A DNA stretch of 39,841 bases, from positions 1 through 39,841 of the forward strand of contig JAUNCV010000001.1 in assembly GCA_030526445.1 (NCBI GenBank), given 5' to 3'. This DNA is from Bacteroidales bacterium (GTDB taxonomy: Bacteria > Bacteroidota > Bacteroidia > Bacteroidales > UBA3663). This document shows, piece after piece, positions 901 to 22,725 of this stretch (the first letter of the stretch is position 1; the number at the start of each line of letters is the position of its first letter). Under the pieces are notes generated by a model. That model had not been told where the DNA came from and did no database searches. It worked only from the letters and a program-made list of their open reading frames with translations. Both the position numbers and the translations under genes were made by a program.

Positions 901-1044
901 ATGTAGTCGTTTTATGTTATAATGTTGTTTTGTTGTTTCGCTTTGCTCGTTGTTTTGTTGTTTTGTTGTCCCGTTGTTTCATTCCGCTCTGAGACCAAGA
1001 ACAAAACAACTTATAACCAAGAACAACAAAGACAACATTAATAT
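901..1044 (-). repeat. 144-nt susC-susD spacer made of GTTGTTTTGTTG-type repeats and their complements. It folds into a long imperfect hairpin.
   Basis: The outer arm 921-937 AATGTTGTTTTGTTGTT pairs with 1022-1039 AACAACAAAGACAACATT (one bulge). The inner arm 949-960 GTTGTTTTGTTG pairs with 999-1010 GAACAAAACAAC (11 of 12). The unit also occurs as a direct repeat at 924-935 and 949-960. Confidence 0.7.
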
Positions 1045-4164: not shown

Positions 4165-4239
4165 GTTGGGTGGTTGTTAATGTGTTAATATCACTGAGTT
4201 ATTGTTAGCGTCAATTTCAGAAAACGAATTTTGACGGCA

Positions 4240-4247
4240 CAAAAGTA
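4240..4247 (-). promoter_or_regulatory. Bacteroidota -7 promoter box (TActTTTG) for the susC at 4164
   Basis: Matches TAnnTTTG on the minus strand, 76 nt upstream of the ATG. Confidence 0.6.
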
Positions 4248-4285
4248 GGTTTTTGCCCTCGAAAAAATGTGTTAGGGACAAAAAA

Positions 4286-4316
4286 ATATGTTGCAAACGG
4301 AATATTTGCAACATAT
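4286..4316 (-). terminator. AT-rich perfect hairpin (12-bp arms ATATGTTGCAAA / TTTGCAACATAT, 7-nt loop) followed by a U-tract. Likely terminator of the PBP-AraC gene, possibly also an operator.
   Basis: Perfect inverted repeat. On the minus strand it is followed by TTTTTTTG. Lies 41 nt after the stop at 4357 and 39 nt upstream of the -7 box. Confidence 0.55.
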
Positions 4317-4356
4317 CTTGTATCGGATAAAACATTATTGCTAAGGTAACAATAAT

Positions 4357-5967: not shown

Positions 5968-6000
5968 AACCGGAAAATTGGTAATTCTGATTTGTGTGAT

Positions 6001-8244: not shown

Positions 8245-8349
8245 TGTTATAGAGTAGTTTTTGATGAAAAGACTGAGGTTAGCTGGAAAACCGATGACTA
8301 CCAGCCTGAAACTGGTAGCCATCAACAAACTTAAACACACATAACACAA

Positions 8350-10086
8350 TTACCAGCCAACATTCTGCTTATATTTTTCTCCGCTATAGTTCATCTGGTT
8401 GAGAGGAATGGGGAGATACTCGTCGCGATTGGCAGTGAACTTAGCCTGACGGAGATAATCGACAACCTCTTTCTCCTTGGCAATATAATCGTTCAGATAG
8501 TTGGCAGCAATGCCCCAGCGAACGAGGTCGAAGAAGCGGTTGCCCTCGGTGGCAAATTCGAGGCGACGCTCCCAGCGAAGAGCCTGACGGGCACTTTCCT
8601 GATTCCAGGTGTAGTTGGCATCAGTGTAGAGGGCAATGTTGTAGTTGCCAAACTGCATGCCTGCTGCATTGACCAGCTTAGAGGTGCTGTTGGCAGCACG
8701 CTGGCGAATCTGGTTGATCAGGTCGCGGGCTTCGTCGAGGTTCTCATTGAGCTCAATGTCGATCTCTGCCTTCCAGAGAAGCACATCATCGTAACGAAGG
8801 AGGTCGATGTTCTTGGCCGAGCCTGCAAAATAGGTGGTGGCAGTGAGGGTCGGGTCGTTAGGACTCACCAACTCCTTCATGCAAGAGTAGTAGCTATATA
8901 CACCCGGAACACGCGACCAAGACTTCTGATACACAAAGTTGGGCTCATACTTGAATGGACGGCCAGGGATGCCCACTGTGTGGTCGAGACGAGGATCGAC
9001 CTCAGGGTTGATGTCGTTGAAGTTGCCATCCTTGGCAGCATCGACCTCATAGAAGGTCTCGAACATAGGCAGGCCATTCTCGGTCTTGAAAGCATTGATG
9101 AGGTTGTGGCTTGGCTGGTGGAAGCCGCAAGTGGCAGGATACTCTGAAGCCATTGGGTAGTTGAGGGCATGGTCTTCATCGATTCGGCCATAAATGGTGC
9201 CATCGTTCGAACTATACTGTACGGCAAAGATCGACTCAATGCCGTTTTCGGTAGCGGTGAGGAAGTTGTTGGCAAAGTCGGCAGCCAGAGCATATTTGCC
9301 AGAGCCAATTACCTCATCGCAAAGCGAACCTGCCTTGGCAAGCATCTGCTTGTCTATGCTGGTGACCTGGTTGTTGTCATCGCCCTGCACATAGGCTGCA
9401 TAGAGCAAGGTCTTGGCCTGATATGCCTTGGCAGCCCACTTGGTGGGACGGCCAACCTCGGTCTGTGAGGCAGGGAGAATGGCTGCAGCCTCCTCGAAAT
9501 CCTGTGCAATGCGAGCCCAGAGCTGAGCATTGTTGAGGTCGTGGTTGGTAGCGGCATTTTTTTCGGTGGTGCCCATGGTCTCGTCAATGAAAGGAACATG
9601 CTTGAAGAGAATCTTGAGCACGAAATAGTAGTGGCCACGAAGGAACTTCATCTCAGCAATGCGCTGCTGGCGGGCAGGCATCTCGGCATCGGTCAGCTTG
9701 TTGAGATACTCGAGAGCGGTATTGACACGCGAGAGGTCGAGATAGAGCTGCACCCAGAGGTTGTCGGTCCACTCATTATCGACCGTATTGCTGTAGTAAA
9801 CCTCCCACTGGTGTGCCAGACCGCAGTCGCCTGTTCCGCCACCACCTTTGTAGGTGTCGCCACTACGCACACAACCCAATGACCAGAGGCTGACCAAAGG
9901 ACGATGCCAGGTGGTGTTGCCTAAAGTAGAGTAGGCTGCATTGCAAAGCTGATCAACATTGGCAGCCGTGTTGAAGTCTTCTTCGGTTACGATGCCTTGT
10001 GCCTCTTCGTCGAGGAAGTCAGAGCATGAAGACAAACTGAGGATACCAGCCAAACCGAGAGCTAAATATTTCATAGATGTTTTCAT
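8350..10086 (-). CDS. SusD/RagB-family nutrient-binding lipoprotein (578 aa)
   Basis: Lipoprotein signal MKYLALGLAGILSLSSCSDFLDEE. SusD-like TPR-containing body (RAEMKFLRGHYYFVLKILF, WERRLEFATEGNRFFDLVRWG). Lies 27 nt downstream of a SusC-like gene. Confidence 0.93.
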   Translation of the reverse strand: MKTSMKYLALGLAGILSLSSCSDFLDEEAQGIVTEEDFNTAANVDQLCNAAYSTLGNTTWHRPLVSLWSLGCVRSGDTYKGGGGTGDCGLAHQWEVYYSNTVDNEWTDNLWVQLYLDLSRVNTALEYLNKLTDAEMPARQQRIAEMKFLRGHYYFVLKILFKHVPFIDETMGTTEKNAATNHDLNNAQLWARIAQDFEEAAAILPASQTEVGRPTKWAAKAYQAKTLLYAAYVQGDDNNQVTSIDKQMLAKAGSLCDEVIGSGKYALAADFANNFLTATENGIESIFAVQYSSNDGTIYGRIDEDHALNYPMASEYPATCGFHQPSHNLINAFKTENGLPMFETFYEVDAAKDGNFNDINPEVDPRLDHTVGIPGRPFKYEPNFVYQKSWSRVPGVYSYYSCMKELVSPNDPTLTATTYFAGSAKNIDLLRYDDVLLWKAEIDIELNENLDEARDLINQIRQRAANSTSKLVNAAGMQFGNYNIALYTDANYTWNQESARQALRWERRLEFATEGNRFFDLVRWGIAANYLNDYIAKEKEVVDYLRQAKFTANRDEYLPIPLNQMNYSGEKYKQNVGW

Positions 10087-10113
10087 CTGTATATGCTATT
10101 TGAAAGTTAGTAC

Positions 10114-13100
10114 TTAGAAGGTTACATTCAGACCTACAGTGGTAACCAGTGGTCGAGGATAAGCATTGCTTGAGTTCTCAGGATCGACACCCGAGAAGTC
10201 TTTAGACTTGATGGTGAGCAAGTTGTTAGCCTGCACATAGATGTCTGCATTCGAGATCCAACTGAACTTGTCGCAGATTTTCTTCAAAGAGTAACCTACC
10301 TGGATGTTTCGAAGCTTCAGGTAAGAACCATTCTCAACAAAGTAGCTTGAGCGACGGCCCTCGTTGTTGGCATCGTTGAAGGTGAGCATCGGGATGTCAG
10401 AACCGGTGTTCTGTGGGGTCCATGCATCGAGCACTCGCTTGCCATAGTTGGTGCCGGTGTAGAGCGAAGTGAAGTCGGTGAGAGTCTTGAGGTTGTTGTA
10501 AACATCGATGCCAGCCAGACCCTGCCAGAACATAGATACTGAGAGGTCTTTCCACTTCATGCCAAGGTTGAGACCATACTCAAACTTAGGCAGACCGTCG
10601 GTGAGATAGGTGCGGTCTTTGTCGTCGATGACATGGTCGCCATTGAGATCCTTGTAACGGATACGGCCAGGGCCTGCACCGGTCTGGGTGGCATGAGCAT
10701 CGACTTCGGCCTGATTCTGGAACAGACCATCGGCTACATAGCCATAGACAGAGTTGATAGAGCGGCCCAGGATGACATCGGTGGTGCCGTTGCCAGGATA
10801 AGAGGTGAGCACACTCTTAGGAAGCTTGGTGACTTCGTTCTGGTAACGCGAGATGTTGAGGCCCGCATTCCAGCTCCAGTCTTTATTGATGTTGTGGCTG
10901 TAGTTGAGCTGCAACTCCCAGCCCCAGTTCTTCATAGAGGCACCATTGACCCACTGATTGCCACCTTCGCCAATAACAGCCAGGTAGTTAGGGCTGATGA
11001 GAATGTCTTTGGTCTCTTTGATGAAGTAGTCGAACGAACCGGTGAGATCATTATTCAGGAAGCCGAAGTCAACACCCATATTGTGCTGGGTTGAGGTCTC
11101 CCACTTGAGATCTTTGTTGCTCAACTGCTGGCGAGCAAAACCAGAAACCATAGAGCCATTGCCGGCAATATCGTAGGCAGTACCCTTGTCTGGATTTGAA
11201 GCTACCGATGAGTCGGGAGTGCCATAGATGGCCTTATAGATTGACATATATGCATAGTTGTCGATCTCTTGGTTACCATTCTGGCCCCAGCCATAACGAA
11301 GCTTCAGGTCGCTGAACAGGTTGAGGTTGCGGATGAAATCCTCTTCCGACATGCGCCAGCCGAGAGAGTAGGCAGCGAAGGTGCCCCAGCGATTATCCTT
11401 GGCAAAACGGCTTGAACCATCGCGACGAAGGGTGAACGAAACCAGATATTTGTTCATGAGCTGGTAGTCGGCCTTGCCAAAGAACGAGAGCAAGGTGTAG
11501 CTTGAGCCTTCACCCGCATTGTTAATGCTCGATGAACCGGTGCTCAGATACATATAATTGAGATTCTCGAGAGAATAGCCCTTGCGGCTTGCCGAGAACA
11601 TCTGGTTGTTGTATTTGGCCATCTCGTGACCGAGCAGCACGGTGAGGCGGTGGTTGCGACCATATTCGGCCGAGTAGTTGAGGGTGTTCTGCCACTGCCA
11701 GTTGCCCATAAACTTGAACTGCTGGTCGAGCTTGTTGGTGGCATCACCCAGGAAGCCGCTGGTAAATGACTTGGTCATGTTGCGGAAGTAGGTTCCAAAG
11801 TAATCGACACCACCAGAGGTGCGGAAGGTGAAGTCTTTCAGGAACTTAACCTCGGCAAAGGCATTGCCGAAGAGGCGAACATTGTTGGCTGCATTCTCGG
11901 CATTGTCGACCAGCTGACGAAGAGGGTTGTGCACATCGCTCATGCCATTGACTGGGCCGCCCCAGCCGCCCTTGTTGTCGTGAACGGGTGTGAGAGGGTG
12001 CGAACGAAGCACATTCCACATCACTGCCGATGCATTGCCCTCGCCACCCACGGTCTGCTGATCCTTGTGGGTGTAGCTGACAGAGAGGTTTTCGCCTACA
12101 CGCAAGTGATTGTCGAAGAAGTTGTACTCAGAGTTGGCACGAAGAGAGGCACGCTTCATAAAGGTCTCTTTCATGATGCCCTCGTTGTCATAGTAGCCCA
12201 TTGAGAACATCGAGCGACCATGCTCATTGCCATTGGAGAAGGTGAGGTTGTAGCTCTGAATGAGTGGTACGCGTGAAACCTCATCATACCAGTCGGTATC
12301 GCCAGCTGTTTCGTTGTAAGGCGAGAAAGCGCTCTGGTTGACACCTACCGAAGAAAGGGTGGGGTTGTTATAGTCGTTGTTCCAGTTGAAGGTATAGAGG
12401 CTCTGGGCTGAGTTGGGGTCACTGCCATCGTTGACCCAGGCACGCCATACGGCTCGGCCCAGACCATTGGCATCGAGCACCTCCATGCGATTGTTGTAAA
12501 ACTGGGTAGAGAGCGAAGCATTGAAGGCAATCTCTTTGTAGCCCTCTTTGGCTCGTTTGGTGGTGATGATGACAACACCGTTGGCTGCACGGCTACCATA
12601 GATAGAGGCCGAAGAGGCATCCTTGAGCACCTGGATAGACTCGATATCGCGCGAGTTGAGCTCGTTGAGACCACGCTTGGTGGGCATGCCATCGATCACA
12701 TAAAGAGGATCGTTGTTACCCAGGGTGCCAATGCCTCGGATGCGTACGGTGGCTGCACCCTCGGGCGAACCATCGGTGGTGATGTTAACACCTGGCACAC
12801 GGCCCTGAAGGGCCTCCATGGGGTTGCTGGTTGGAATATCGCTGGTCTCTTTGAGCTTGATGACACTCACGGCACCGGTCAAATCGGCCTTGCGTGCCAC
12901 TTGATAACCTACTACTACTGCCTCTTCGAGCTGTTTGCTATCTTCGAGCAGTGTAACATTGAAAACATTTTTGCCATCGGTCAGCATCTCCTGCTGAACA
13001 TATCCTATATAAGAGAAAATGAGTGAGCTGCCGTCGGCAACAGTAAGAGTGAAGTTGCCATCCATATCGGTGACAGTACCATTGCTTGTACCCTTTTCGA

Positions 13101-13263
13101 TGACATTGACGCCAATGAGGCCATCGCCAAATTCGTCAATTACTTTGCCGGTCAGCTGCTTCTGAGCCCAAGTGGCTCCTACGAAACATGATGAGACGAG
13201 GAGGGTGGCTGCGAGTCGCTTGGCTCCCGTCTGTCTTTTCGGGTTAGTCTGGTTTCTTTTCAT
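10114..13263 (-). CDS. SusC-family TonB-dependent outer-membrane transporter (1049 aa)
   Basis: Carboxypeptidase-regulatory-like domain (LTGKVIDEFGDGLIGVNVIEKGTSNGTVTDMDGNFTL). Plug motifs (VVVGYQVARKADLTGAVSV, VRIRGIGTLGNNDPLYVIDGMP, SSASIYGSRAANGVVIITTKRA). Terminal ...VGLNVTF. Paralogous to the gene at 1045..4164. Confidence 0.95.
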   Translation of the reverse strand: MKRNQTNPKRQTGAKRLAATLLVSSCFVGATWAQKQLTGKVIDEFGDGLIGVNVIEKGTSNGTVTDMDGNFTLTVADGSSLIFSYIGYVQQEMLTDGKNVFNVTLLEDSKQLEEAVVVGYQVARKADLTGAVSVIKLKETSDIPTSNPMEALQGRVPGVNITTDGSPEGAATVRIRGIGTLGNNDPLYVIDGMPTKRGLNELNSRDIESIQVLKDASSASIYGSRAANGVVIITTKRAKEGYKEIAFNASLSTQFYNNRMEVLDANGLGRAVWRAWVNDGSDPNSAQSLYTFNWNNDYNNPTLSSVGVNQSAFSPYNETAGDTDWYDEVSRVPLIQSYNLTFSNGNEHGRSMFSMGYYDNEGIMKETFMKRASLRANSEYNFFDNHLRVGENLSVSYTHKDQQTVGGEGNASAVMWNVLRSHPLTPVHDNKGGWGGPVNGMSDVHNPLRQLVDNAENAANNVRLFGNAFAEVKFLKDFTFRTSGGVDYFGTYFRNMTKSFTSGFLGDATNKLDQQFKFMGNWQWQNTLNYSAEYGRNHRLTVLLGHEMAKYNNQMFSASRKGYSLENLNYMYLSTGSSSINNAGEGSSYTLLSFFGKADYQLMNKYLVSFTLRRDGSSRFAKDNRWGTFAAYSLGWRMSEEDFIRNLNLFSDLKLRYGWGQNGNQEIDNYAYMSIYKAIYGTPDSSVASNPDKGTAYDIAGNGSMVSGFARQQLSNKDLKWETSTQHNMGVDFGFLNNDLTGSFDYFIKETKDILISPNYLAVIGEGGNQWVNGASMKNWGWELQLNYSHNINKDWSWNAGLNISRYQNEVTKLPKSVLTSYPGNGTTDVILGRSINSVYGYVADGLFQNQAEVDAHATQTGAGPGRIRYKDLNGDHVIDDKDRTYLTDGLPKFEYGLNLGMKWKDLSVSMFWQGLAGIDVYNNLKTLTDFTSLYTGTNYGKRVLDAWTPQNTGSDIPMLTFNDANNEGRRSSYFVENGSYLKLRNIQVGYSLKKICDKFSWISNADIYVQANNLLTIKSKDFSGVDPENSSNAYPRPLVTTVGLNVTF

Positions 13264-13322
13264 AAAAATAATAAAGTTAGAAGGATAAAATAGAATGCGT
13301 CATTTTTTTTGTTTTTAAGCTG

Positions 13323-13330
13323 CAAAGATA
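13323..13330 (-). promoter_or_regulatory. Bacteroidota -7 promoter box (TAtcTTTG) for the susC at 13263
   Basis: Matches TAnnTTTG on the minus strand, 60 nt upstream of the ATG. Confidence 0.6.
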
Positions 13331-13376
13331 GGGTATCCTTGGTGGTCGGTAGATAAAAAAATGTTTCAGAAACAAA

Positions 13377-13413
13377 AAGATTTGTTGCATTCCGGAAAAT
13401 TGCAACAAATCTT
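13377..13413 (-). terminator. AT-rich perfect hairpin (13-bp arms AAGATTTGTTGCA / TGCAACAAATCTT; the 11-nt loop contains the palindrome TTCCGGAA) followed by a U-rich tract
   Basis: Perfect inverted repeat. On the minus strand it is followed by TTTGTTTCTGAAACATTTTTTT. Lies 47 nt upstream of the -7 box of the susC at 13263. Confidence 0.5.
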
Positions 13414-13504
13414 CTATGTAGTGAACGAAAAGTATAAATGTTACATGCAATGTTACATATGTATCGGGGCTAAAAACTGCTGAAACTAAAAGAAATAGAG
13501 GTTC

Positions 13505-14923
13505 CTAAGAGAGTAAATCCTGCATAGTTATAACATTTTGCACCACAGAGCTATGGATATTTTTCTGCAATCCCTGGTTGGTGATCAATGTAACTCGTAT
13601 CGAACTTTTCGTGCCTGTATATTGAATAAAACTCTCTACACGATGCTCCAGTTTCTCTCGTTCCGTCTTGGTCAAAGCATACTCTCCTGCACAAAACTTC
13701 ATTTCGCAAAGATTGATGCAATGGTCGGCACGATCGATGATTAAGTCAATCTGTGCTCCCTTGTCGGCGGTTGCTGGTGTGCGCCATCCATACACAGCCG
13801 TCTGCACTCCTCCTATGCGAAGAGCCTCCTTGATTTTGCCGATATGATTCAGACAAAGAATTTCAAATGCGAAACCGCTCCAGGCGTGATAGAGTGGCGT
13901 GTTGATACTATGCGACCAAAACTGCTCATCTTGATATTGGCATTTGTCCTGAATATGATAACAAAAGTGCAGGAACGGATCGATAAGCTGATAGCTTAGC
14001 ATACGTTTCTTTCCATCGAATGGCTGATATGGACGAATGAAACGACAGTTCTCCAGCTCTTTGAGCATGCTGGAAAAACGTACATTGTTGTGCAGTTTTG
14101 TATGTTCAAGCAATTCGCTACGGGTAAGTCCCTTACTCTTCGACGAAAGTGCTTCGACAATGCGGACATAGTCTTCGCTATGCTTGAAGAGCGAACGGAA
14201 AAGGTTGTCTTTTTCAGCCCTCAATTCTCCAGTAGCTGAGAAAATGAGGCGGTCGATGTTCTGCGCAACACTCTCCTCCTTATTTAATAAAGAAAGATAA
14301 TAGGGCACACCTCCGAAGACCATATAGTAATCGGTCACTTCACGGTCGGTATAGCCAAAAGCATATTTATCAAAATACTCTCGGCACTCGGAGAGTGAAA
14401 ATGGCTCGATGAGCATCTGGTGGGTTACTCGATTGTGCAAACCTCCATGATTGTTGATGAGATTGTCGAGCATCCACGAGGCAGCACTACCGCACACGAT
14501 CAACTTAATGTCACGGCGAGCCGAAGCCCAGCTGTTCCAGAAATGCTCAAGGGCACTTACAAAATCTGATTTGGCAGTGGCAAGCCATGGCATCTCATCG
14601 AAGAACAGTATCTTCGTCTCTTCGTTCAAGCCCTCGAGATAGCGTTCCAACTGGTCGAATGCCTCCAGCCAGCTCCTGCTGCGCTCCGCTCCTGCAAACC
14701 TTTTTCTTAGGCTAAGAAAGAAGTTGGTGAGCTGCTCTTCCTGTCCCACATTCTCCATGCCCGTTATCTGAAAACAACAGCGGTCGGCAAGGCTCTTCCG
14801 CACAAGAAAAGTCTTTCCGACACGACGACGTCCATAGACAACAACAAACTCCGAGCGATTGGATGCGATATATTCCTTGAGAGCTCTCTGCTCTTTCTGT
14901 CGGCCAATGAGATATTCTTCCAT
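13505..14923 (-). CDS. AAA+ (Arch_ATPase/DUF234-type) ATP-binding protein with a C-terminal PD-(D/E)xK-like nuclease motif (472 aa from MEEYLIG)
   Basis: Walker A VVYGRRRVGKTFLV and Walker B ILFFDEMPW. C-terminal region GFAFEILCLNH...GAQIDLIIDRADHCINLCEMKF has a D...ExK pattern. The start at 14923 lies 25 nt downstream of a TAccTTTG box. The track's longer start (14992) would lie upstream of that box. Confidence 0.8.
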   Translation of the reverse strand: MEEYLIGRQKEQRALKEYIASNRSEFVVVYGRRRVGKTFLVRKSLADRCCFQITGMENVGQEEQLTNFFLSLRKRFAGAERSRSWLEAFDQLERYLEGLNEETKILFFDEMPWLATAKSDFVSALEHFWNSWASARRDIKLIVCGSAASWMLDNLINNHGGLHNRVTHQMLIEPFSLSECREYFDKYAFGYTDREVTDYYMVFGGVPYYLSLLNKEESVAQNIDRLIFSATGELRAEKDNLFRSLFKHSEDYVRIVEALSSKSKGLTRSELLEHTKLHNNVRFSSMLKELENCRFIRPYQPFDGKKRMLSYQLIDPFLHFCYHIQDKCQYQDEQFWSHSINTPLYHAWSGFAFEILCLNHIGKIKEALRIGGVQTAVYGWRTPATADKGAQIDLIIDRADHCINLCEMKFCAGEYALTKTEREKLEHRVESFIQYTGTKSSIRVTLITNQGLQKNIHSSVVQNVITMQDLLS

Positions 14924-14947
14924 AATAATCAGTATTTTATGACGATG

Positions 14948-14955
14948 CAAAGGTA
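14948..14955 (-). promoter_or_regulatory. Bacteroidota -7 promoter box (TAccTTTG) for the ATPase gene
   Basis: Matches TAnnTTTG on the minus strand, 25 nt upstream of ATG 14923. Confidence 0.5.
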
Positions 14956-14996
14956 ATGAAAAGGTTGGCATGAACAAAACTTTCTGGACCAAAAAG

Positions 14997-15030
14997 TGCT
15001 GAAACGCATTTAAAAAAAATGATTTCAGCA
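14997..15030 (-). terminator. Second hairpin (8-bp arms TGCTGAAA / TTTCAGCA, A/T-rich 18-nt loop) followed on the minus strand by CTTTTTGG
   Basis: Inverted repeat built from the same GCTGAAA unit, in tandem with the hairpin at 15043..15089. Confidence 0.4.
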
Positions 15031-15042
15031 GAAAATAGACCT

Positions 15043-15089
15043 AAAAGTTGCTGAAACGATATAAAAAGATACCCATTTCAGCAACTTTT
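15043..15089 (-). terminator. Hairpin (14-bp perfect arms AAAAGTTGCTGAAA / TTTCAGCAACTTTT) downstream of the 910-aa HTCS gene
   Basis: Perfect inverted repeat 31 nt after the stop at 15120. It is built from the GCTGAAA repeat unit. Confidence 0.5.
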
Positions 15090-15119
15090 GAGGCTAACTA
15101 GCGGTTTCAGACAGAGTTC

Positions 15120-17852
15120 TTATCCCTTGCGTTTAACCAGCTCGTTGGGGTTTTCGCCAAAGAACTCTTTGTAACATTTGGTGAAGTAGCTGGGAGCGGT
15201 GAAGCCCACGGCATAGGCCACTTCGGCAATGGTATCGTCGCTCTGTGCCAATAGCTGCTGGGCTCGCTTGAGGCGGGTGTTGCGAATCAACTCGACTGGG
15301 GAATAGTTGGTCAAAGTCTTGCACTTACGGTAGAGTTGTGCACGGCTCATACCTATCTCCTCGCCCAATTGCTCTACGCCAAAGTCGGCATCGGAAAGAT
15401 GAGCATCGATGCATTTGCGCACACGTTCCATAAACTTGTCGTCGAGGCTGGAAGAGGGAGATGAAGTTATGTCGCTTCGCTTGTTAAGAGGTGAAGGAGT
15501 TTTATTCCCTTCGCCAAAGAAATCGCGAACGCGGTCATGGTTCTTAATCAATGTCTCGATCTGTGCCCTCAGCACATCCACATTGAATGGCTTGGCAACG
15601 TAGGCGTCTGCACCTTCGTGCAAGCCCTGAATGCGTTGCTCATCGAGCGAGCAGGCTGTAAGCATCAGTACCGGAATGTGACAGGTGTTGACTTCGTTCT
15701 TGAGGCGATGGCAACATTCCATGCCATCCATACCGGGCATCATCACATCGCATATTATCAAATTGGGGACAAGGCGCATGGCCTTCGAGATGCCCTCTTG
15801 CCCATTGCTGGCGGTAAAGACATGATAGGAGTCGGCCAAAAGAGATGAGAGCATCTGGCGGATGTCGGGATTATCGTCGATTACGAGCAACACCGGCTTA
15901 GGATCGTCTTCAGCCACTTCGTACTCTTGGCCGAAGGTATCAAGTTCGGTCTCTACTTGCTGGGTCGAAATCTTGGCTATCGGAGTTATGGTTTCGGCCG
16001 ATGTATCAGGATTTCTTGCCGGCAGTGTTACGGTGATAACGGTTCCGGTTCCTTCGGGCTGATTGCCAACCTCGATAGTGCCCTCGTGTAGTTCAACAAA
16101 GTTCTTAACTAGAGCCAATCCTAGGCCAGAACCATCGTGATGGAGGGAGTCGATTTGATAGAAACTATCGAAAATCTTCTGTATATGTTCGTTGTTGATG
16201 CCTGGGCCGGTATCGGCAATCGTGAGCACGAAAACAGGAGTGTTGGTATGCTGTTTTGTCAACGAGATGGAAATCTTACCATTTTCAGGTGTAAACTTGA
16301 AAGCATTACCTACGATATTATAAAAAACACGCTCCAGTTTGGCCGCATCGCCTTGGGTGAGGAATGGATTTTCATCTTCCATGCCTAATTCCTCACTTTT
16401 TACGTCTAATTCCAGTTTGATGTGTTTTTTGTGCGCCAGTCCATTGAATGATGCAAACCATGTCTCCACCTCTTGTTTGAGGTCGAGGTTTTGGAGGTTG
16501 AGTTCCATCTTGCCGCTCTCCATCTTGCGGAAGTCGAGAATCTGGTTGATGAGGCGCAGTAAGACCTGAGTGTTTTTATTGGCAATATTGAGCAACTGCA
16601 GTTGGTGAGGTTCTTTCACTTCGGTTAGCAACTTTTCAAGAGGTGCTGCGATGAGAGTGAGTGGGGTGCGAAAATCGTGGCTCACATTGGTGAAGAACGA
16701 TAGCTTGGCCTTCGTTGCCTCTTCGAGTTGGCTTTGTGCCAGGTGTTTGGCCTTGAGTTGTCGCATCAGGGCCATATACATCAATATAAATATGAAGAGG
16801 AAGACGAGAAGCGAATAGAGCAAGGTACGCTCCAAATTGTGCTGTTCCCAATAACGATCTACTTCGCTTTTCAGCATCTGTACTGCCTCGACCTGATGAG
16901 CCACTTCGGTTGCCACATTGTTCAGAAGTGGCGCACTTTCGGCATTGACCAAGTATGTGTCGAGGGCAATATTTCTTTCGAATGGTTTGCCTTGGAGAAT
17001 CTTGGCTGCGGTCTGAATAATGATGTCGCCACCCGTGGCATATACGGCAGAGGCATCTATTCTGCCCTGCGTAATGGCCTCGACGCCATTGCCTGTACCA
17101 GTCAGAGCATCGACACCCATGATGGGTATCAGATTGCCAGGAAAGTGTTTTTCCAAGGCGATGTCAGCACCCATAGCCATCTGGTCGTTTTGAGCAAGAA
17201 TAATTTGGATGTCGGGATGAAGGTTAAGAATCGAATCAACAACAGTCTCGCTTTGTTCTTTCAACCAATTGCCTCGGCATTGTATAATTTCATAGTGAAT
17301 GCCACTCTCTTCAATTTCTTCCATTAATCCTTGGTGCCTAAGAGTGGCAGGTGTTGAACCGTCTAATCCTAATATTTCTAGTACTTTGCCACCTTGTGGT
17401 AGTTGCTGATGCAAATAAAGCCCCATTTGGTGGCCTACAACAAGATTGTCACCGCCTATGAAGGCTGTGTATTTCTCGTTGGTCATCTTTCGGTCTGCCA
17501 CAATGACAGGAATGCCTGCGTCGAAGGCTTGGCTCATCACAGGAGTGAGTTTTGCAGCCTCGCGAGGTGAAACAATCAGCAAATCGACCTTTTTTTCGAT
17601 AAAATATTCAATGTCCGAAACTTGCCTGTCGTTATCATCATCGGCCGAACGCACTTCCATCTCCATTTCGGGATGGAAAAGCAGTTCGCGCTTCATTTCT
17701 TCGTTAAGTTTAGTACGCCAGGCATCGTTGCTGCATTGCGATACGCCTATATGATAGCGCACAGCCCCCTGTCCGTCGCAAGCAGCGAGGAACAGGAGGC
17801 TGAGAAATAAGGGAATATATAGGGACAGTTTCCTATAAAAGGTTGTTATCAT
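15120..17852 (-). CDS. Hybrid two-component system sensor kinase/response regulator with a periplasmic-binding-protein sensor (PBP-TM-HisKA-HATPase-REC-AraC HTH, 910 aa)
   Basis: PBP domain (YHIGVSQCSNDAWRTKLNEEMKRE, IPVIVADRK, AFIGGDNLVVGHQ). TM helix LLYSLLVFLFIFILMYMALM. H-box KLSFFTNVSHDFRTPLT. ATPase boxes (GNAFKFTP, DTGPGI, GSGLGLALV). Receiver (PVLLVIDDNPD, LIICDVMMPGMDG, VLMLTA, YVAKPF). AraC HTH (MSRAQLYRKCKTLTNYSPVELIRNTRLKRAQQLL). This matches the architecture known for monosaccharide-sensing HTCS such as B. thetaiotaomicron BT1754. Confidence 0.92.
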   Translation of the reverse strand: MITTFYRKLSLYIPLFLSLLFLAACDGQGAVRYHIGVSQCSNDAWRTKLNEEMKRELLFHPEMEMEVRSADDDNDRQVSDIEYFIEKKVDLLIVSPREAAKLTPVMSQAFDAGIPVIVADRKMTNEKYTAFIGGDNLVVGHQMGLYLHQQLPQGGKVLEILGLDGSTPATLRHQGLMEEIEESGIHYEIIQCRGNWLKEQSETVVDSILNLHPDIQIILAQNDQMAMGADIALEKHFPGNLIPIMGVDALTGTGNGVEAITQGRIDASAVYATGGDIIIQTAAKILQGKPFERNIALDTYLVNAESAPLLNNVATEVAHQVEAVQMLKSEVDRYWEQHNLERTLLYSLLVFLFIFILMYMALMRQLKAKHLAQSQLEEATKAKLSFFTNVSHDFRTPLTLIAAPLEKLLTEVKEPHQLQLLNIANKNTQVLLRLINQILDFRKMESGKMELNLQNLDLKQEVETWFASFNGLAHKKHIKLELDVKSEELGMEDENPFLTQGDAAKLERVFYNIVGNAFKFTPENGKISISLTKQHTNTPVFVLTIADTGPGINNEHIQKIFDSFYQIDSLHHDGSGLGLALVKNFVELHEGTIEVGNQPEGTGTVITVTLPARNPDTSAETITPIAKISTQQVETELDTFGQEYEVAEDDPKPVLLVIDDNPDIRQMLSSLLADSYHVFTASNGQEGISKAMRLVPNLIICDVMMPGMDGMECCHRLKNEVNTCHIPVLMLTACSLDEQRIQGLHEGADAYVAKPFNVDVLRAQIETLIKNHDRVRDFFGEGNKTPSPLNKRSDITSSPSSSLDDKFMERVRKCIDAHLSDADFGVEQLGEEIGMSRAQLYRKCKTLTNYSPVELIRNTRLKRAQQLLAQSDDTIAEVAYAVGFTAPSYFTKCYKEFFGENPNELVKRKG

Positions 17853-17887: not shown

Positions 17888-18703
17888 TTATTCTATGTCA
17901 GTAGGTGATTCAAGAGCTTGCTGTCGGGCCAATGCAATGTTGATCTTGGCTTGGACGAGTGCTTTCTTCATCTCTTCAGCATTTGAAGCCTTGAGTCCGA
18001 TGAGTGGGTCAATTATTTTGAACATGGCAGCAGCAGAACTGCTCTGAGACCTCAAAGCTTTGAGACCCTCAACAGAGAGTTCGAAATGGCGGCTGATAGC
18101 AGCAGCGGTTTCGTCGTCGATATGCTTCATATAGAGGTTCGGGTTGTTCGAAACAACGTAAAGAACCTCGATGCCCATAGAGGTTGTTGCCTCATAGAAA
18201 TAATCCATGCGGTTATTTTCTTTCATCAAATCATAGAAATCCTGGAAGGTTTTTACCGAAAGAGCGGTTGCGTTATCCTCCTGCTTCAATTCTTGGATGT
18301 TTTTGATGAAGAGATCATTTTTCATGGTCTCAAAAATTCTGTTCATATCTCCAAGTTCGTTTACGTCATAGAGATTTCTGACGCGAGAGTCAACAATCAT
18401 CATACCCCAGGCTCTGTACTTCTGCGAGAGGGAGACTAAGTCCTTGATGTCATCGGCGCTAAGCAGATAATCAGGCTTAACCAATTTCTCGGCATCAGTG
18501 AGGAAATGATCAGGATTATGGAAGAGTTTCTTGATTTCTTTCTTTTCTGTTATTTCGCAAAGCAAGCCTGCCAGGCTATCAACTTGGCATGCTACTTCTT
18601 CTTCAAGTTTCTCAACTTCGATGACAGGTTTGTCGGTTTTCTTGGTGTTGCATGATGAAAGCAGCATAAGAACGGTTGCAGCAGCTACAAAAAAATGTTT
18701 CAT
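17888..18703 (-). CDS. Hypothetical lipoprotein (271 aa), paralog of 21843..22667
   Basis: Lipobox MKHFFVAAATVLMLLSSCNTKK. Blocks shared with the 274-aa lipoprotein: LTDAEKLVKPDYLL vs LSDAQKKVLPDYLV, SLSQKYRAWGMM vs SLSLKYRAMVVF, ENNRMDYFYEATTSMGIEVLYVVSNN vs ENGRANYFWEAAATSIIEQLYILGRN. I do not recognise a family. Confidence 0.7.
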   Translation of the reverse strand: MKHFFVAAATVLMLLSSCNTKKTDKPVIEVEKLEEEVACQVDSLAGLLCEITEKKEIKKLFHNPDHFLTDAEKLVKPDYLLSADDIKDLVSLSQKYRAWGMMIVDSRVRNLYDVNELGDMNRIFETMKNDLFIKNIQELKQEDNATALSVKTFQDFYDLMKENNRMDYFYEATTSMGIEVLYVVSNNPNLYMKHIDDETAAAISRHFELSVEGLKALRSQSSSAAAMFKIIDPLIGLKASNAEEMKKALVQAKINIALARQQALESPTDIE

Positions 18704-18743
18704 GATTTATAAATTTTGAAGAAAATACATCAATGTTTTGCTG

Positions 18744-18751
18744 CAAAAGTA
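18744..18751 (-). promoter_or_regulatory. Bacteroidota -7 promoter box (TActTTTG) for the lipoprotein at 18703 (and possibly the HTCS downstream)
   Basis: Matches TAnnTTTG on the minus strand, 41 nt upstream of the ATG. Confidence 0.55.
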
Positions 18752-18834
18752 TGACTTTTTTTTTGTTTAGCCAAATAATTGCGCCATAATTGCAGAATAT
18801 CCGTCGATAATTTTTAGAAATGACGATAAATGCC

Positions 18835-18842
18835 TATATTTG
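18835..18842 (+). promoter_or_regulatory. Bacteroidota -7 promoter box (TAtaTTTG) for the ABCG-like gene
   Basis: Matches TAnnTTTG on the plus strand, 23 nt upstream of ATG 18865. The extended 13-mer TTATATTTGCGCG also occurs at the pta promoter. Confidence 0.55.
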
Positions 18843-18864
18843 CGCGTGGGTATTTATAAGTGAC

Positions 18865-21786
18865 ATGGTAACAGATCTTACATTATCAAGCTTGATTAAT
18901 CTGTTTGCTCTTTTCTGCTCTACTAGCAAACTTGATGCAGAAAAGGCAAAAACACTTATATCTATCTACTTGACTCGTCACTTTGGTATTCGTAACAAAG
19001 AGGATTATGAGGGCATGTTTCTTGATTTGCTCGAAGTCTATTCTTTGTCGCCCAAACTGGACAAAGAGGCGATTGTTTCGGATATCTGTGCCAATCTGAA
19101 AGGTTCGATAAGCGTAACAGAGGCACCCTCGCTTTTGCTTCGCCTCATGGAGTTTTGCTCCCATTCAGAAGCCTTCGATGATAACATCTCCATCTTTTCA
19201 ATGATGGCTAAACAGCTCCACATTTCTGAAAAGATAGTGGAGGAATTTTATCATTATGTGAGGGGTGAGAATACAAAGCTTGTCCGACTTCACACTATTG
19301 AAGGTCTAGATGGAGAAATCAGAACTCTCTACCTGAAGAAGTACAACTTGATGGTGTTTACCTATGTAGGCTTCGATGTTGTCTTTATGAACGATGTGCC
19401 TGTGACGCAAGGAATGTTTCAGGTATGGGAACAGAGCGGCATTCTGAAGAGTTTATCGGGTAGTCCTATCTACTACAGTACAGTGCTGGCCCCTTACTTG
19501 GAAGGCAAGTCGAAACAAAAGGTTACTTTCTCTGCTCGTGACGTGCAGTTCCGTTTCCCTAATTCGGAAAATGGTATTCACGATTTGAGCTTTGATCTTA
19601 ACAGTGGCGAGTTACTCGCCATTATGGGCGGTTCTGGAGCCGGCAAAACCACAATGCTGACTTTGCTTAATGGTACCCTCAAACCTCAGAGCGGAAGTAT
19701 CACAATCAATGGACATGATATTTCGGAGCCTGCAGCCAAGGAGTTGATAGGTTTTGTACCACAAGATGATCTTTTGATCGAGGAGTTGACCGTATATCAA
19801 AATCTCTGGTACACTGCAAAACTCTGCTTTGCTGGCATGTCAGACCAAGAGCTTGATGCTCGTGTCATGAAAGTGCTCACAGAGCTCGGACTTGATGCGG
19901 CCAAAGACTTGAAAGTGGGTTCGGCCATCAATAAATTTATCTCAGGAGGTCAGCGCAAGCGCCTTAACATCGCTCTTGAATTGATACGCGAACCTGCAGT
20001 TCTCTTCCTCGATGAACCAACTTCGGGCCTCTCTTCGACCGACACGGAGCGTGTTATTCATCTTTTGAAGGAACAGACCTACAAAGGCAAGTTGATCGTG
20101 GTCAATATCCATCAGCCGAGCAGTGATGTTTATAAGCTCTTTGACCGGTTGTGGTTGCTTGACCGTGGCGGATATCCAGTATTTGACGGCAATCCAATTG
20201 AGGCTATCACCTATTTTAAGGGTGCGGCTAATTATGCCGATGCTGATACCAGTATGTGTCCGGTATGTGGTAATGTCAATCCGGAGGTGGTGCTCAACAT
20301 TATCGACCAAAAGGCTTTTGATAAGTCGGGACATCTTTCTGCCAAACGCAAGGTTTCGCCTCAGGAGTGGCATCAGTTGTATCTGGATAATCGACCTGAG
20401 ATGGACCCAGTGCAGGAAGTGGCTATTCCACATTCTGATCAAAAGAAACCGGGAGCTTTCCGCCAGTTCCTGATTCAACTGGAGCGCAATGTGATGACCA
20501 AAATCACCAATCGACAATATCTATTTATCACATTGCTTGTAACTCCAGTGTTGGCGCTCATTTGTGGATTCCTCACCCGATATGCACCTGAAAGTGGCTA
20601 TACGGTGATGGAGAACAAGAACCTTGTGTCGTTTTTGTTCATGGCAATCATTGTTGTCATCTTTGTGGGCATGAGTGGTTCGGCCGAAGAGATTATCAAG
20701 GACCGTGCACTCTTGAAGCGAGAAAAGTTCTTGCATCTCTCGTATGGAAGTTATATTTCGAGCAAAGTAGTATTGTTGGCATTTGTCTCCTTGCTACAGA
20801 CTCTCTGTTTTGTCTTGGTAGGTCAGGTGATGATGTCATTTTATGATATGACATGGGTATGGTGGCTCATACTCTTTGTCTCGGCGTTTCTGGCCAATCT
20901 GACTGGTTTGCTACTTTCGCAGTGCCTCAGTTCGGTGGTGGCAATTTATATTACCATACCTTTGCTGCTCATTCCGCAGATTTTGCTTTGTGGTCTTGTG
21001 GTCGATTTCAGCGACCTTGATGGTAAAAGCACAACTGGTAATGTGCCAGCTATTGGCAATATGATTCCGTCGCGATGGGCTTTCGAGGCTATGGCCGTGA
21101 CCACATTCACTAACAATGCCTACGAAGCAAACTTCTATGAATATGACCAGCTGAAGTACGAAAATCAGTACTACCGTGGTGCTGTGCTATGGGAGTTGCA
21201 GTCTCAGCTCGAAACTCTGGAAGATGAACGACAGAAAGGTAAGCCAATGAAACCAAGTCATCTTCAGGTTATCAGCAATGAGCTTCCTGTGCTTGCGTCT
21301 TATGCGGAGGTTGAACCATATAAGGAATCATTGAAATTTGAAGAATATGATTCGGCTATGTATGTTTCAATCAAAGATTATCTTTCGGACATTGAAACCT
21401 TACTGCAGAAACGAAGTAATAGTAACACCCTTTATGCTGACCGTGTATTAACCAAAATGCGAGATGCAATGGGAGGAGACGCTTTCCGTCATTTGCGCGA
21501 AAGTCACGTCAATCGTAAACTTGAAGATGTGGTGATAAATTACATGGCGGGCGAGACTCATACTGTGGTAGGTGGCCATATTGTGCCTCGCATGGGTTTT
21601 GTTTATCTTACGCCTCGCAGCAAGAATGGCATGGCGCCATTCTACAGTCCGGTTAAGTGTGTGGGTGATTTACAGATACCCACATTGTGGTTTAACATAG
21701 GCATCCTCGCCCTTATGGGCATTGTTGTGCTCATTATGCTTTATACCGACTTCCCCGGCCGGAAATTGCAGAAGAGCGAGAAATAA
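18865..21786 (+). CDS. ABCG/White-like fused ABC transporter (N-terminal about 250-aa unknown region, NBD, ABC-2 type TMD with a large TM5-TM6 insert; 973 aa)
   Basis: Walker A GGSGAGKTTML, signature ISGGQRKRLNIALELI, Walker B VLFLDEPTSGLS, and the ABCG-like NIHQPSSDVYKLFDRLWLLDRGGYPVFDG. Five hydrophobic helices follow, then about 230 polar residues, then a final helix (LWFNIGILALMGIVVLIMLY). I prefer the start at ATG 18865 because the TAtaTTTG box at 18835-18842 lies downstream of the track's ATG at 18820. Confidence 0.85.
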   Translation: MVTDLTLSSLINLFALFCSTSKLDAEKAKTLISIYLTRHFGIRNKEDYEGMFLDLLEVYSLSPKLDKEAIVSDICANLKGSISVTEAPSLLLRLMEFCSHSEAFDDNISIFSMMAKQLHISEKIVEEFYHYVRGENTKLVRLHTIEGLDGEIRTLYLKKYNLMVFTYVGFDVVFMNDVPVTQGMFQVWEQSGILKSLSGSPIYYSTVLAPYLEGKSKQKVTFSARDVQFRFPNSENGIHDLSFDLNSGELLAIMGGSGAGKTTMLTLLNGTLKPQSGSITINGHDISEPAAKELIGFVPQDDLLIEELTVYQNLWYTAKLCFAGMSDQELDARVMKVLTELGLDAAKDLKVGSAINKFISGGQRKRLNIALELIREPAVLFLDEPTSGLSSTDTERVIHLLKEQTYKGKLIVVNIHQPSSDVYKLFDRLWLLDRGGYPVFDGNPIEAITYFKGAANYADADTSMCPVCGNVNPEVVLNIIDQKAFDKSGHLSAKRKVSPQEWHQLYLDNRPEMDPVQEVAIPHSDQKKPGAFRQFLIQLERNVMTKITNRQYLFITLLVTPVLALICGFLTRYAPESGYTVMENKNLVSFLFMAIIVVIFVGMSGSAEEIIKDRALLKREKFLHLSYGSYISSKVVLLAFVSLLQTLCFVLVGQVMMSFYDMTWVWWLILFVSAFLANLTGLLLSQCLSSVVAIYITIPLLLIPQILLCGLVVDFSDLDGKSTTGNVPAIGNMIPSRWAFEAMAVTTFTNNAYEANFYEYDQLKYENQYYRGAVLWELQSQLETLEDERQKGKPMKPSHLQVISNELPVLASYAEVEPYKESLKFEEYDSAMYVSIKDYLSDIETLLQKRSNSNTLYADRVLTKMRDAMGGDAFRHLRESHVNRKLEDVVINYMAGETHTVVGGHIVPRMGFVYLTPRSKNGMAPFYSPVKCVGDLQIPTLWFNIGILALMGIVVLIMLYTDFPGRKLQKSEK

Positions 21787-21842
21787 AAATACAATAGAAA
21801 CATTAAAGATATCTATCAATAACAAACAAAAACAACAGAATT

Positions 21843-22667
21843 ATGAAAAAAATTGCACTTGTGCTTGCAGCTGTAGCTGCATTGGCTATGACCGCTTGTG
21901 GTGGTAAGAAGGCTGCTCAGAATGAATCAGCAGAGGCTCCACAGAGCCAGGAGAGTTTCCAGGAGCAGCAAATCAAGATGGGCATGAAGGTTCACCTCGA
22001 TAGCCTTACCAACGCTTGGCTTCGCATTGAGAAGCCAATGGCAGTGACCTACAATGCTCAGGAGGGTAAGGTTAAGCTTTCTGATGCTCAGAAGAAGGTT
22101 CTTCCTGATTACCTCGTAAATCCAGACGAGGTAATGGGTTCGCTCGAGAGCCTCTCTCTTAAGTATCGTGCAATGGTAGTGTTCGATATGGACAAAGAGG
22201 TTGCTAAGCTCTATGGCATGAATGATGTATATACTCCAGCTATCAACAAGCTTGCTGCAGAAGTTGATGATCCTGCTGTTAAGTATCTCTACAATGTTGA
22301 TGAGAAGGTAACTTATCAGGAGCGTATGAACAAGGTTTATAGCCTTGAGGAGGAGAATGGTCGTGCTAACTATTTCTGGGAGGCTGCAGCTACCTCTATC
22401 ATTGAGCAGCTTTATATTCTTGGCCGCAATCAGGAGGTTTTCCTCGCAAGCTTCACCGATCAGGATGCTGAGGACATTACTTTCTATGTAAGCCTTCTTG
22501 TTGATGCTTATGCTGATCTTGCAGAGTACAATTCAGAGCTCGCTCGTCTCTACAATGTAATTCTTCCTCTCCAGGTTCTCAACGCTATCACTGTTGATGA
22601 GCTTCGCACTCAGCTCAACCAGATTGATGCTGACATTGCAAATGCTCGCAAGGCTCTCTTTATGTAA
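21843..22667 (+). CDS. Hypothetical lipoprotein (274 aa), paralog of 17888..18703
   Basis: Lipobox MKKIALVLAAVAALAMTACGGKK. Shares blocks with the 271-aa lipoprotein (see that feature). Lies 56 nt downstream of the ABC gene, behind a C/A-rich leader. Confidence 0.7.
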   Translation: MKKIALVLAAVAALAMTACGGKKAAQNESAEAPQSQESFQEQQIKMGMKVHLDSLTNAWLRIEKPMAVTYNAQEGKVKLSDAQKKVLPDYLVNPDEVMGSLESLSLKYRAMVVFDMDKEVAKLYGMNDVYTPAINKLAAEVDDPAVKYLYNVDEKVTYQERMNKVYSLEEENGRANYFWEAAATSIIEQLYILGRNQEVFLASFTDQDAEDITFYVSLLVDAYADLAEYNSELARLYNVILPLQVLNAITVDELRTQLNQIDADIANARKALFM

Positions 22668-22689
22668 TTCTATACATTATATATATAAT

Positions 22690-22720
22690 AACGCCCAGAA
22701 CAAATTCAGTTCTGGGCGTT
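22690..22720. terminator. Bidirectional intrinsic terminator between convergent genes (arms AACGCCCAGAAC / GTTCTGGGCGTT, 7-nt loop)
   Basis: Perfect 12-bp GC-containing stem, flanked by ATATATAATA on one side and AATTTTTATT on the other. Lies between the stops at 22667 (+) and 22726 (-). Confidence 0.8.
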
Positions 22721-22725
22721 AATTT

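Follow-up and report, generated by a model that had tools for sequence, protein, structure and literature searches.

Conserved pairing of an ABCG-like transporter gene with a lipoprotein gene in Prevotellaceae-type Bacteroidales and its genomic link to partner-switching signalling

The first 39,841 nucleotides of contig JAUNCV010000001.1 from the Bacteroidales bacterium assembly GCA_030526445.1 (hereafter, the window) carry a gene for a fused ATP-binding cassette (ABC) transporter that is flanked by two lipoprotein genes, LP1 and LP2, encoding proteins of 271 and 274 aa. A preliminary description of this DNA had read the three genes as a single module. Our analysis reduces the conserved unit to two genes: ABC and LP2 form an operon whose two genes stay together in Prevotellaceae-type Bacteroidales even as the neighbouring genes turn over, and in ~40% of lineages this pair sits inside a cluster of partner-switching genes. 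The best reading of these data, which in our judgement has an even chance of being right, is that the pair encodes a phospho-regulated type V ABC exporter with a dedicated periplasmic lipoprotein partner. The coordinates of all features are collected in Table 1.

The survey comprised 105 loci with an ABC ortholog, corresponding to 56 ABC clusters at 90% identity. For a sample unbiased with respect to the lipoprotein, metagenome contigs were scanned with the N-terminal domain of the ABC protein, which gave 80 ABC-anchored loci. Co-occurrence of lipoprotein and transporter, on which the preliminary description had staked its proposal, was found in all 62 of these loci that extend 400 nt or more beyond the ABC stop codon: a family lipoprotein gene lies downstream in the same orientation, at a median distance of ~48 nt. 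Lipoprotein-anchored look-ups, which span LP2 relatives from 85 to 38% identity, the nearest relatives of LP1 and eight species-representative metagenome-assembled genomes (MAGs), place the lipoprotein directly after a same-strand, full-length ABC ortholog (57-80% identical). The downstream lipoprotein is also present in all other fetched ABC-bearing loci (L001-L019 and L021-L025), those from two additional ABC-anchored look-ups included, its family membership in L024 and L025 being assigned by hhalign (E=1e-77), and one locus, L020, holds an orphan lipoprotein gene without ABC. The genes flanking the pair differ between lineages and include gyrB, dnaA, GH3, xseA and an RND pump, among others.

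Could the lipoprotein nevertheless be a structural or chaperone-like envelope protein that merely shares a transcript with a housekeeping ABC exporter? Stand-alone family members and the kinase fusions described below show that the domain can work without an ABC protein. However, wherever an ABC-bearing locus extends far enough downstream, the adjacency is kept with short gaps, through 56 clusters and wholly turned-over flanks, and since unrelated genes rarely keep such linkage, we regard this explanation as very improbable.

The organization of the window agrees with transcription of the pair as one unit. The ABC reading frame is open from 18820, and the N-termini of the orthologs align to its second ATG at 18865 (MVTDLTLSS...), not to the first. 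With this start, the control region that separates ABC from the divergent LP1 gene has a length of 161 nt, matching the ~160 bp reported previously, and the Bacteroidetes-type TAnnTTTG motif at 18835-18842 falls between the two candidate ATGs. The number of TAnnTTTG occurrences across the whole window is not above chance level, so the motifs of the control region are to be taken as consensus matches only. Scanning of the 56-nt gap between ABC and LP2 revealed neither a terminator nor a promoter motif, and because a strong terminator follows LP2, the two genes are probably co-transcribed, as the preliminary description had supposed from their spacing. No riboswitch or other RNA element was found near the three genes, and no public sequencing runs covering the locus were found.

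Several surveyed loci depart from the simple two-gene arrangement. In L029 (9053-10045) and L032, a lactate/malate dehydrogenase gene lies between ABC and the lipoprotein; the pair thus tolerates an unrelated gene without further separation. In L010 (1-8822), the pair begins 14 nt after an RND efflux operon (adaptor, ACR_tran and OEP), a spacing compatible with co-transcription of the pair and a multidrug-type pump in that lineage. The ABC ortholog of L100 (3461-6349) appears as two open reading frames (ORFs; 3461-4900 and 5117-6349), which may reflect a frameshift, a pseudogene or an assembly error. Two loci hold extra lipoprotein copies. L060 (8995-10647) has two tandem lipoprotein genes after ABC, the second 56-58% identical to the resident type. 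The orphan copy of L020 (5477-6804) is 65-72% identical, and its start overlaps the stop of a 175-aa secreted ORF, which proved not to be ABC-related; there is no ABC gene within 6 kb, and the same MAG holds a normal ABC-lipoprotein pair (L017). These extra copies are recent local duplicates, unlike LP1.

A key question is whether LP1 belongs to the unit at all. The preliminary description implied a three-component envelope system in which both lipoproteins serve the transporter, for example as donor and acceptor, and are co-regulated from the divergent promoter region. In accordance with this proposal, LP1 and ABC lie head-to-head over 161 nt, LP1 retains the nine residues invariant in the family alignment and an intact lipobox, and L060 and L020 show that extra lipoprotein copies occur elsewhere too. 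On the other hand, an upstream divergent lipoprotein gene was found in none of the other surveyed loci, including relatives whose ABC proteins are 73-80% identical to that of the window; the closest of them (ABC 80%, LP2 85% identical) have a GH3 gene in this position. LP1 itself was found on this contig only, among ~15 billion proteins. Its identity to any relative does not exceed 34% (median 29%), its terminal branch measures 0.40 versus a family median of 0.023, and in the tree it clusters with the long-branch members P0013, P0122 and P0157; the loci of P0122 and P0157, those that were looked up, contain stand-alone genes with no ABC neighbour. The LP1 gene has a promoter motif separate from that of ABC, no DNA-level repeat common to the two lipoprotein genes was found, and LP1 is contiguous with the gene of a hybrid two-component regulator: the gap, on the same minus strand, is 35 nt and contains neither a terminator nor a TAnnTTTG motif, so the diverged lipoprotein gene is probably co-transcribed with that regulator. 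Judged by its sequence, LP1 appears to be a very divergent extra family copy outside the conserved unit, and the three-component system is improbable in our view. Of the earlier idea that the duplicated lipoproteins form a dedicated system, the part concerning LP2, the cognate partner of the transporter, is supported, while the part concerning LP1, a long-branch protein grouping with stand-alone members, is not.

What kind of protein is the lipoprotein? The two ORFs, their homology, their largely helical character and their lack of a named family were all described correctly in advance. BLASTP aligns LP1 and LP2 with 31% identity across 206 aa (E=1e-22), and every block listed beforehand is found in the alignment: LTDAEKLVKPDYL/LSDAQKKVLPDYL, SLSQKYRA/SLSLKYRA, ENNRMDYFYEA/ENGRANYFWEA and the C-terminal ...A(L/N)AR. 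With similarity so far above chance, the two are true paralogs. Both signal peptides end in a lipobox Cys, which is kept in at least 90% of 27 aligned family members. The residues that follow it (C-GGKKAAQ in LP1 and C-NTKKTDK in LP2; family consensus C-xGNK, read by eye) are basic, not acidic. Surface-exposed Bacteroidetes lipoproteins carry an acidic export signal right after the Cys, and the basic residues therefore argue for a periplasm-facing lipoprotein.

The AlphaFold2 (AF2) model of LP2, built with 27 family members, is all-helical, with 14 helices, a predicted local distance difference test score (pLDDT) of 85 and a predicted template-modelling score (pTM) of 0.79; the helices are preceded by a disordered leader and tether (residues 1-34), with ~20 residues of tether after the Cys. 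Pfam and NCBIfam searches of LP1 and LP2 returned signal-peptide-only matches. Sequence and profile searches against PDB gave no match, the profile search yielding nothing below E=0.018, and Foldseek comparison of the LP2 model with PDB gave none either (best E 0.34, TM-score at most 0.26, mostly designed helical repeats). Through Pfam, NCBIfam, PDB profiles and Foldseek, no likeness in sequence or fold to LolA/LolB/LprG, MlaC or TPR-type helical repeats was detected. An origin of the lipoprotein as a duplicate of the periplasmic insert of the ABC protein was ruled out (hhalign probability 0.3%).

The family is small: searched exhaustively with the family profile, 1.84 billion representative proteins yielded 273 members at E<=1e-3 and 152 at E<=1e-30. 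All taxonomically labelled sources are Prevotella, Prevotellaceae, Bacteroidaceae or unclassified Bacteroidales, and a genome scan with the narrower family alignment A2 reached LP2-like sequences only, in eight species. In the source annotation, the lipoprotein is a 'hypothetical protein' and the transporter an 'ATP-binding cassette domain-containing protein'. The lipoprotein domain is not confined to lipoproteins, as it also occurs in two diverged proteins as the extracytoplasmic C-terminal module of Ser/Thr kinases (kinase, transmembrane (TM) helix, lipoprotein domain). One of these fusions lies on a 62-kb contig (L026) inside a tandem kinase array beside a PP2C gene. There, at least seven tandem Ser/Thr kinase genes follow the PP2C gene (703-13887), and the two kinases whose C-terminal regions were seen carry different modules, the lipoprotein-family domain and an FGE-sulfatase domain. 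Another apparent fusion, P0077 on a 1.7-kb contig, is made up of an MlaD-like N-terminal part (PF02470) and the C-terminal half of a P0024-like lipoprotein; we rejected it as a link to MlaD, an assembly or gene-call chimera being more likely than a real fusion.

The transporter itself matches Pfam ABC_tran (PF00005, E=4.5e-34) and ABC2_membrane (PF01061, E=2.7e-18). The motifs of its nucleotide-binding domain (NBD) are intact in the translation: GGSGAGKTT (Walker A), SGGQRKR (signature), LFLDEPTSG (Walker B) and HQPS (H-loop). The NBD precedes, in one polypeptide, a six-helix ABC2_membrane domain consisting of five clustered hydrophobic segments and TM6, and through both the NBD and the transmembrane domain (TMD), the protein aligns to ABCG2 and ABCG1 (E ~1e-40, query residues 240-717). 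The ABCG-type NCBIfam model TIGR00955 scores 255 bits, far below its cut-off of 736. The ABC protein can thus be classed as ABCG-like but not as a member of the TIGR00955 (eukaryote-type ABCG/EPP) subfamily, and is predicted to be a catalytically intact NBD-TMD half-transporter with an ABCG/ABC-2 (type V) membrane domain. The large periplasmic insert noted in the preliminary description was also recovered, before TM6: hydropathy reveals no hydrophobic segment between residues 718 and 936, and the ~185-aa soluble stretch is probably periplasmic, its outside topology following from homology to extracellular loop 3 of ABCG proteins. The insert, residues 751-935, has no match in PDB or Pfam and is a candidate docking site for the lipoprotein.

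The first ~225 residues of the ABC protein form a family-specific domain. Its AF2 model, built from 12 orthologs (pLDDT 85, pTM 0.81), consists of seven helices and a small beta-sandwich, and neither Pfam nor PDB gave a sequence match to it. A TAL-effector match from PDB profile searches of this domain and the insert was rejected, as it contained no passing stretch and reflected repeat bias. In a Foldseek search against PDB, FHA domains account for most of the top 50 matches of the beta-sandwich, many with a probability of 0.9-1.0 over 43-80 columns, while Pfam FHA (PF00498) gives no match in the ABC protein at E<=1. We tentatively describe the modelled beta-sandwich as FHA-like by fold with a non-canonical sequence. 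The seven-helix sub-domain has faint Foldseek matches to globins (flavohemoglobin and Vitreoscilla haemoglobin; probability 0.18-0.28, E 0.1-1), which serve as a lead only; a globin-like N-domain is known from RsbR-type stressosome sensors. Among orthologs, identity to the ABC protein of the window is 86% in the NBD and 73% in the TMD versus 42% in the N-terminal domain and 43% in the insert. Correspondingly, the N-terminal domain, the insert and the lipoprotein all show p-distances of ~0.51, as compared with 0.18 (NBD) and 0.23 (TMD). The N-terminal domain and the periplasmic insert are therefore two fast-evolving additions that mark this ABC family.

The second main line of evidence comes from the neighbours of the pair. 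Genes for STAS, RsbW, SpoIIE or RelA proteins occur at most two genes away in 40 of the 80 ABC-anchored loci, representing 23 of the 56 clusters, and Pfam confirms the partner-switching domains in these neighbours. The signalling genes surround the pair in at least seven arrangements: (i) RsbW, ABC, lipoprotein, STAS; (ii) a dCache-HAMP-SpoIIE(PP2C)-HATPase_c_2 fusion, ABC, lipoprotein, STAS and sometimes RelA/SpoT; (iii) ABC, lipoprotein, RsbW, STAS, RelA/SpoT; (iv) STAS(-), ABC, lipoprotein, RsbW(-); (v) STAS, RsbW, ABC, lipoprotein; (vi) RelA(-), STAS(-), ABC, lipoprotein; and (vii) ABC, lipoprotein, one unrelated gene, SpoIIE. Genes that stay adjacent across such rearrangements are classically taken to be functionally linked. 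In the STAS protein, the canonical phosphorylatable-Ser site is present as DYISSSGL. No cognate Ser/Thr kinase gene was found in the window or adjoining the ABC orthologs, which are adjoined by RsbW-type kinases instead. Neither the partner-switching link nor the Ser/Thr kinase link had been part of the preliminary description.

Individual loci show further details of these clusters. The fusion is exemplified by L057 (3571-5985), where an 804-aa protein composed, in this order, of TM, a dCache/PDC sensor, HAMP, SpoIIE (PP2C) and HATPase_c_2 is encoded directly upstream of the ABC ortholog; fusions of this type also occur in L053, L055, L059, L077-L079 and L098-L100. Such a protein joins a partner-switching phosphatase and an RsbW-like kinase behind a periplasmic sensor. 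A 364-aa RelA_SpoT-domain protein is always encoded beside the STAS gene (L022, 9063-10157; L068, 10559-11653; ~8 other loci); an alarmone enzyme may thus be the output or a partner of the partner-switching set. In one lineage (L037, 9884-10837; also L038 and L092), a HisKA_3-type histidine kinase gene comes after the lipoprotein gene, and the 213-aa ORF that follows this kinase in L037 may be its response regulator. A GerE regulator is among the neighbours of the pair in L022.

Taken as an exporter, the pair could work as follows. The preliminary description had suggested substrate delivery or extraction, for example of lipids, lipoproteins or glycolipids, and such a role may apply here. Driven by ATP, an ABC homodimer would move an amphipathic molecule of the envelope or extract it, and the tethered lipoprotein would dock on the periplasmic insert as an acceptor, adaptor or gate; this docking we infer only from co-location, topology and similar evolutionary rates. 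Cytoplasmic phospho-signalling would tune the transporter either by binding of STAS or by phosphorylation, with the N-terminal domain or the NBD as its point of action. LP1 would not be a second arm of the machine, and any action of LP1 on the transporter would be lineage-specific.

Each of these elements can be compared with systems that are already characterized. ABCG2, ABCG1, ABCG5/G8 and bacterial ABC-2/type V exporters share with the ABC protein the NBD-before-TMD order, the ABC2_membrane fold and an extracytoplasmic TM5-TM6 loop, but compared with ABCG half-transporters, our protein adds the ~225-aa N-terminal domain, has the TM5-TM6 loop enlarged to ~185 aa and possesses a dedicated lipoprotein partner. 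In LprG-Rv1410c and LolCDE/LolA, an inner-membrane transporter is co-transcribed with a periplasm-facing carrier or adaptor, the carriers having beta-rich lipid-binding folds. The two-gene logic is the same here, whereas the lipoprotein is all-alpha with no PDB fold match and the transporter is of another class.

Two precedents bear on regulation. In Mycobacterium tuberculosis, the Ser/Thr kinase PknF regulates Rv1747, an ABC exporter with FHA domains (PMC3138270, PMC3908365). This exporter resembles our protein in its fused N-terminal regulatory domain, NBD and TMD, and in the phospho-signalling genes that adjoin the transporter. By its description, however, Rv1747 has two canonical FHA domains, a Hanks kinase and no known partner lipoprotein, while the present system has one fold-only FHA-like sub-domain after a helical bundle and, in related loci, STAS, RsbW and PP2C partner-switching genes. 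In the second precedent, the STAS protein MlaB binds and regulates the ATPase MlaF (PMC7367683). Here, too, a small STAS protein is genetically linked to a Gram-negative envelope ABC transporter with a periplasmic accessory protein, but MlaE has another transmembrane fold, MlaD is an MCE hexamer rather than an all-helical lipoprotein, and the STAS gene accompanies our pair in a subset of lineages only, where it comes with a cognate kinase and phosphatase as a true partner-switching set. Control of the transporter by STAS binding or phosphorylation would parallel the action of MlaB on MlaF and of PknF on the FHA domains of Rv1747. With the SpoIIAA/SpoIIAB/SpoIIE and RsbV/RsbW/RsbU systems, related loci share a DxxSSxGL STAS protein, an HATPase_c_2 kinase and a SpoIIE-type PP2C; they differ in having no sigma factor nearby and in holding the ABC-lipoprotein pair and a RelA/SpoT-domain protein inside the cluster.

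Several observations weigh against the phospho-regulated exporter. A phmmer search of the 39.8-kb window found no partner-switching gene (STAS, HATPase_c_2 kinase or PP2C), so regulation of this type is extrapolated to the present organism from its relatives. The FHA-like assignment relies on sub-significant Foldseek E-values (best 0.036), and the canonical phosphothreonine-binding residues GR, SxxH and NG are absent from the conserved columns of the beta-sandwich. In a mirror-tree comparison, the lipoprotein correlates equally with the N-terminal domain (partial r 0.58) and the insert (0.57), which does not favour the insert and makes the comparison uninformative. LP1 lies head-to-head with the ABC promoter region, and the two genes may accordingly be co-regulated in this organism. 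Finally, related Prevotella of rumen and gut contributed many of the surveyed loci, and the counts are consequently not fully independent.

The signalling genes also raise another question: is the pair an exporter under phospho-control or rather a sensory ABC device? In the latter case, the lipoprotein would sense a ligand or stress in the periplasm, and the ABC protein would act mainly as a transducer rather than as a bulk exporter, comparable to flux-sensing by BceAB or mechanotransmission by FtsEX. An envelope signal would pass through the FHA-like domain to STAS, RsbW and PP2C and then to the RelA/SpoT-domain protein or LuxR-type regulators. Such a role is in line with the use of the lipoprotein domain as an extracytoplasmic module in two diverged Ser/Thr kinases and with the signalling genes that tightly and recurrently flank the pair, including the HisKA_3 kinase of L037 and the GerE regulator of L022. 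The position of LP1 in the window, directly upstream of a hybrid two-component sensor, points in the same direction, and the ABC N-terminal domain is a plausible protein-interaction module. Yet where the PP2C-kinase fusion is present, it has its own periplasmic dCache sensor, so the cluster needs no ABC protein as input. Moreover, the identity of the NBD (86%) and TMD (73%) and the intact catalytic motifs are as expected of a working transporter, and ~60% of lineages, including that of the window, have no signalling gene beside the pair. We consider a sensory device possible, though on balance unlikely. A broader version extends the idea to the whole domain family: Bacteroidales would use the lipoprotein domain as an extracytoplasmic sensor of a new class and plug it into an ABC protein with an FHA-like domain, into Hanks-type Ser/Thr kinases and, through LP1, perhaps into hybrid two-component systems, and the pair would be a trans-envelope signalling device feeding a partner-switching cascade over a RelA/SpoT-type alarmone enzyme. 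This version is unlikely and is put forward as a speculation.

On the minus strand, the region 1045-17852 is a polysaccharide utilisation locus headed by the hybrid regulator that adjoins LP1. Besides genes for SusC and SusD proteins and an alpha-galactosidase, it contains a gene for a 536-aa protein with Peripla_BP_4 and an AraC helix-turn-helix (HTH) domain, without kinase or receiver domains.

Table 1 Features of the ABC-lipoprotein region and of the adjoining part of the window
Feature	Position	Strand	Basis or remark
LP1 lipoprotein, lipobox LLSSC, 271 aa	17888-18703	-	ORF; family profile match, 242 bits
Control region between divergent LP1 and ABC, 161 nt	18704-18864		With ABC start at 18865
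TAnnTTTG (-7-type) motif in control region	18744-18751	-	
TAnnTTTG (-7-type) motif in control region	18835-18842	+	
ABC gene	18865-21786	+	ORF open from 18820; start from ortholog N-termini
ABC, seven-helix cytoplasmic N-terminal sub-domain (predicted), residues 1-133	18865-19263	+	AF2
ABC, small FHA-like beta-sandwich (tentative), residues 138-200	19276-19464	+	Foldseek
ABC, NBD, residues 226-460	19540-20244	+	PF00005
ABC, ABC-2/ABCG-type membrane domain, TM1-TM5 and re-entrant region, residues 546-750	20500-21114	+	PF01061
ABC, probable periplasmic insert, ~185 aa, residues 751-935	21115-21669	+	Hydropathy and ABCG homology
ABC, TM6 (hydrophobic segment 936-965), short basic C-terminal tail and stop codon	21670-21786	+	
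LP2 lipoprotein, lipobox AMTAC, 274 aa	21843-22667	+	Cognate conserved ABC partner
Bidirectional intrinsic-terminator-like hairpin, 13-bp stem (inverted repeat I1)	22689-22721		Closes ABC-LP2
Hybrid two-component regulator (sugar-binding periplasmic domain, HisKA, HATPase, receiver, AraC HTH)	15120-17852	-	Pfam
ATPase_2/AAA protein	13505-14992	-	Pfam; polysaccharide locus
SusC	10114-13263	-	Pfam; polysaccharide locus
SusD	8350-10086	-	Pfam; polysaccharide locus
GH36 alpha-galactosidase	6001-8349	-	Pfam; polysaccharide locus
Peripla_BP_4 and AraC HTH protein, 536 aa	4357-5967	-	Pfam
Second SusC-like receptor	1045-4164	-	Pfam; polysaccharide locus

Literature searches on bacterial ABCG proteins with lipoproteins, on partner-switching in Bacteroides and on STAS proteins with ABC transporters in Bacteroides found no description of the system. 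Three of its features are new: a family of lipoproteins and extracytoplasmic domains without a detectable fold relative in PDB, a previously unreported association in the genome between an ABC transporter and genes for partner-switching and RelA/SpoT-domain proteins, and, tentatively and on the basis of a model, the presence of an FHA-like domain at the N-terminus of an ABCG-like transporter from Bacteroidales. In addition, the obligate gene pairing of the lipoprotein with an ABCG-like transporter is now defined, and the unit for further study is corrected from three genes to two.

The envelope biology of Prevotella and its relatives is poorly known, although these bacteria predominate in many communities of gut and rumen. 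The pair described here is among the best-conserved unannotated operons of the Prevotella type, with an NBD ~86% identical across genera. It offers a testable case in which an ABC exporter of Bacteroidota would be under post-translational control or, alternatively, an ABC protein would serve as a sensor; if the lipoprotein domain does represent a new sensor class, the pair would link the state of the envelope to the stringent response.

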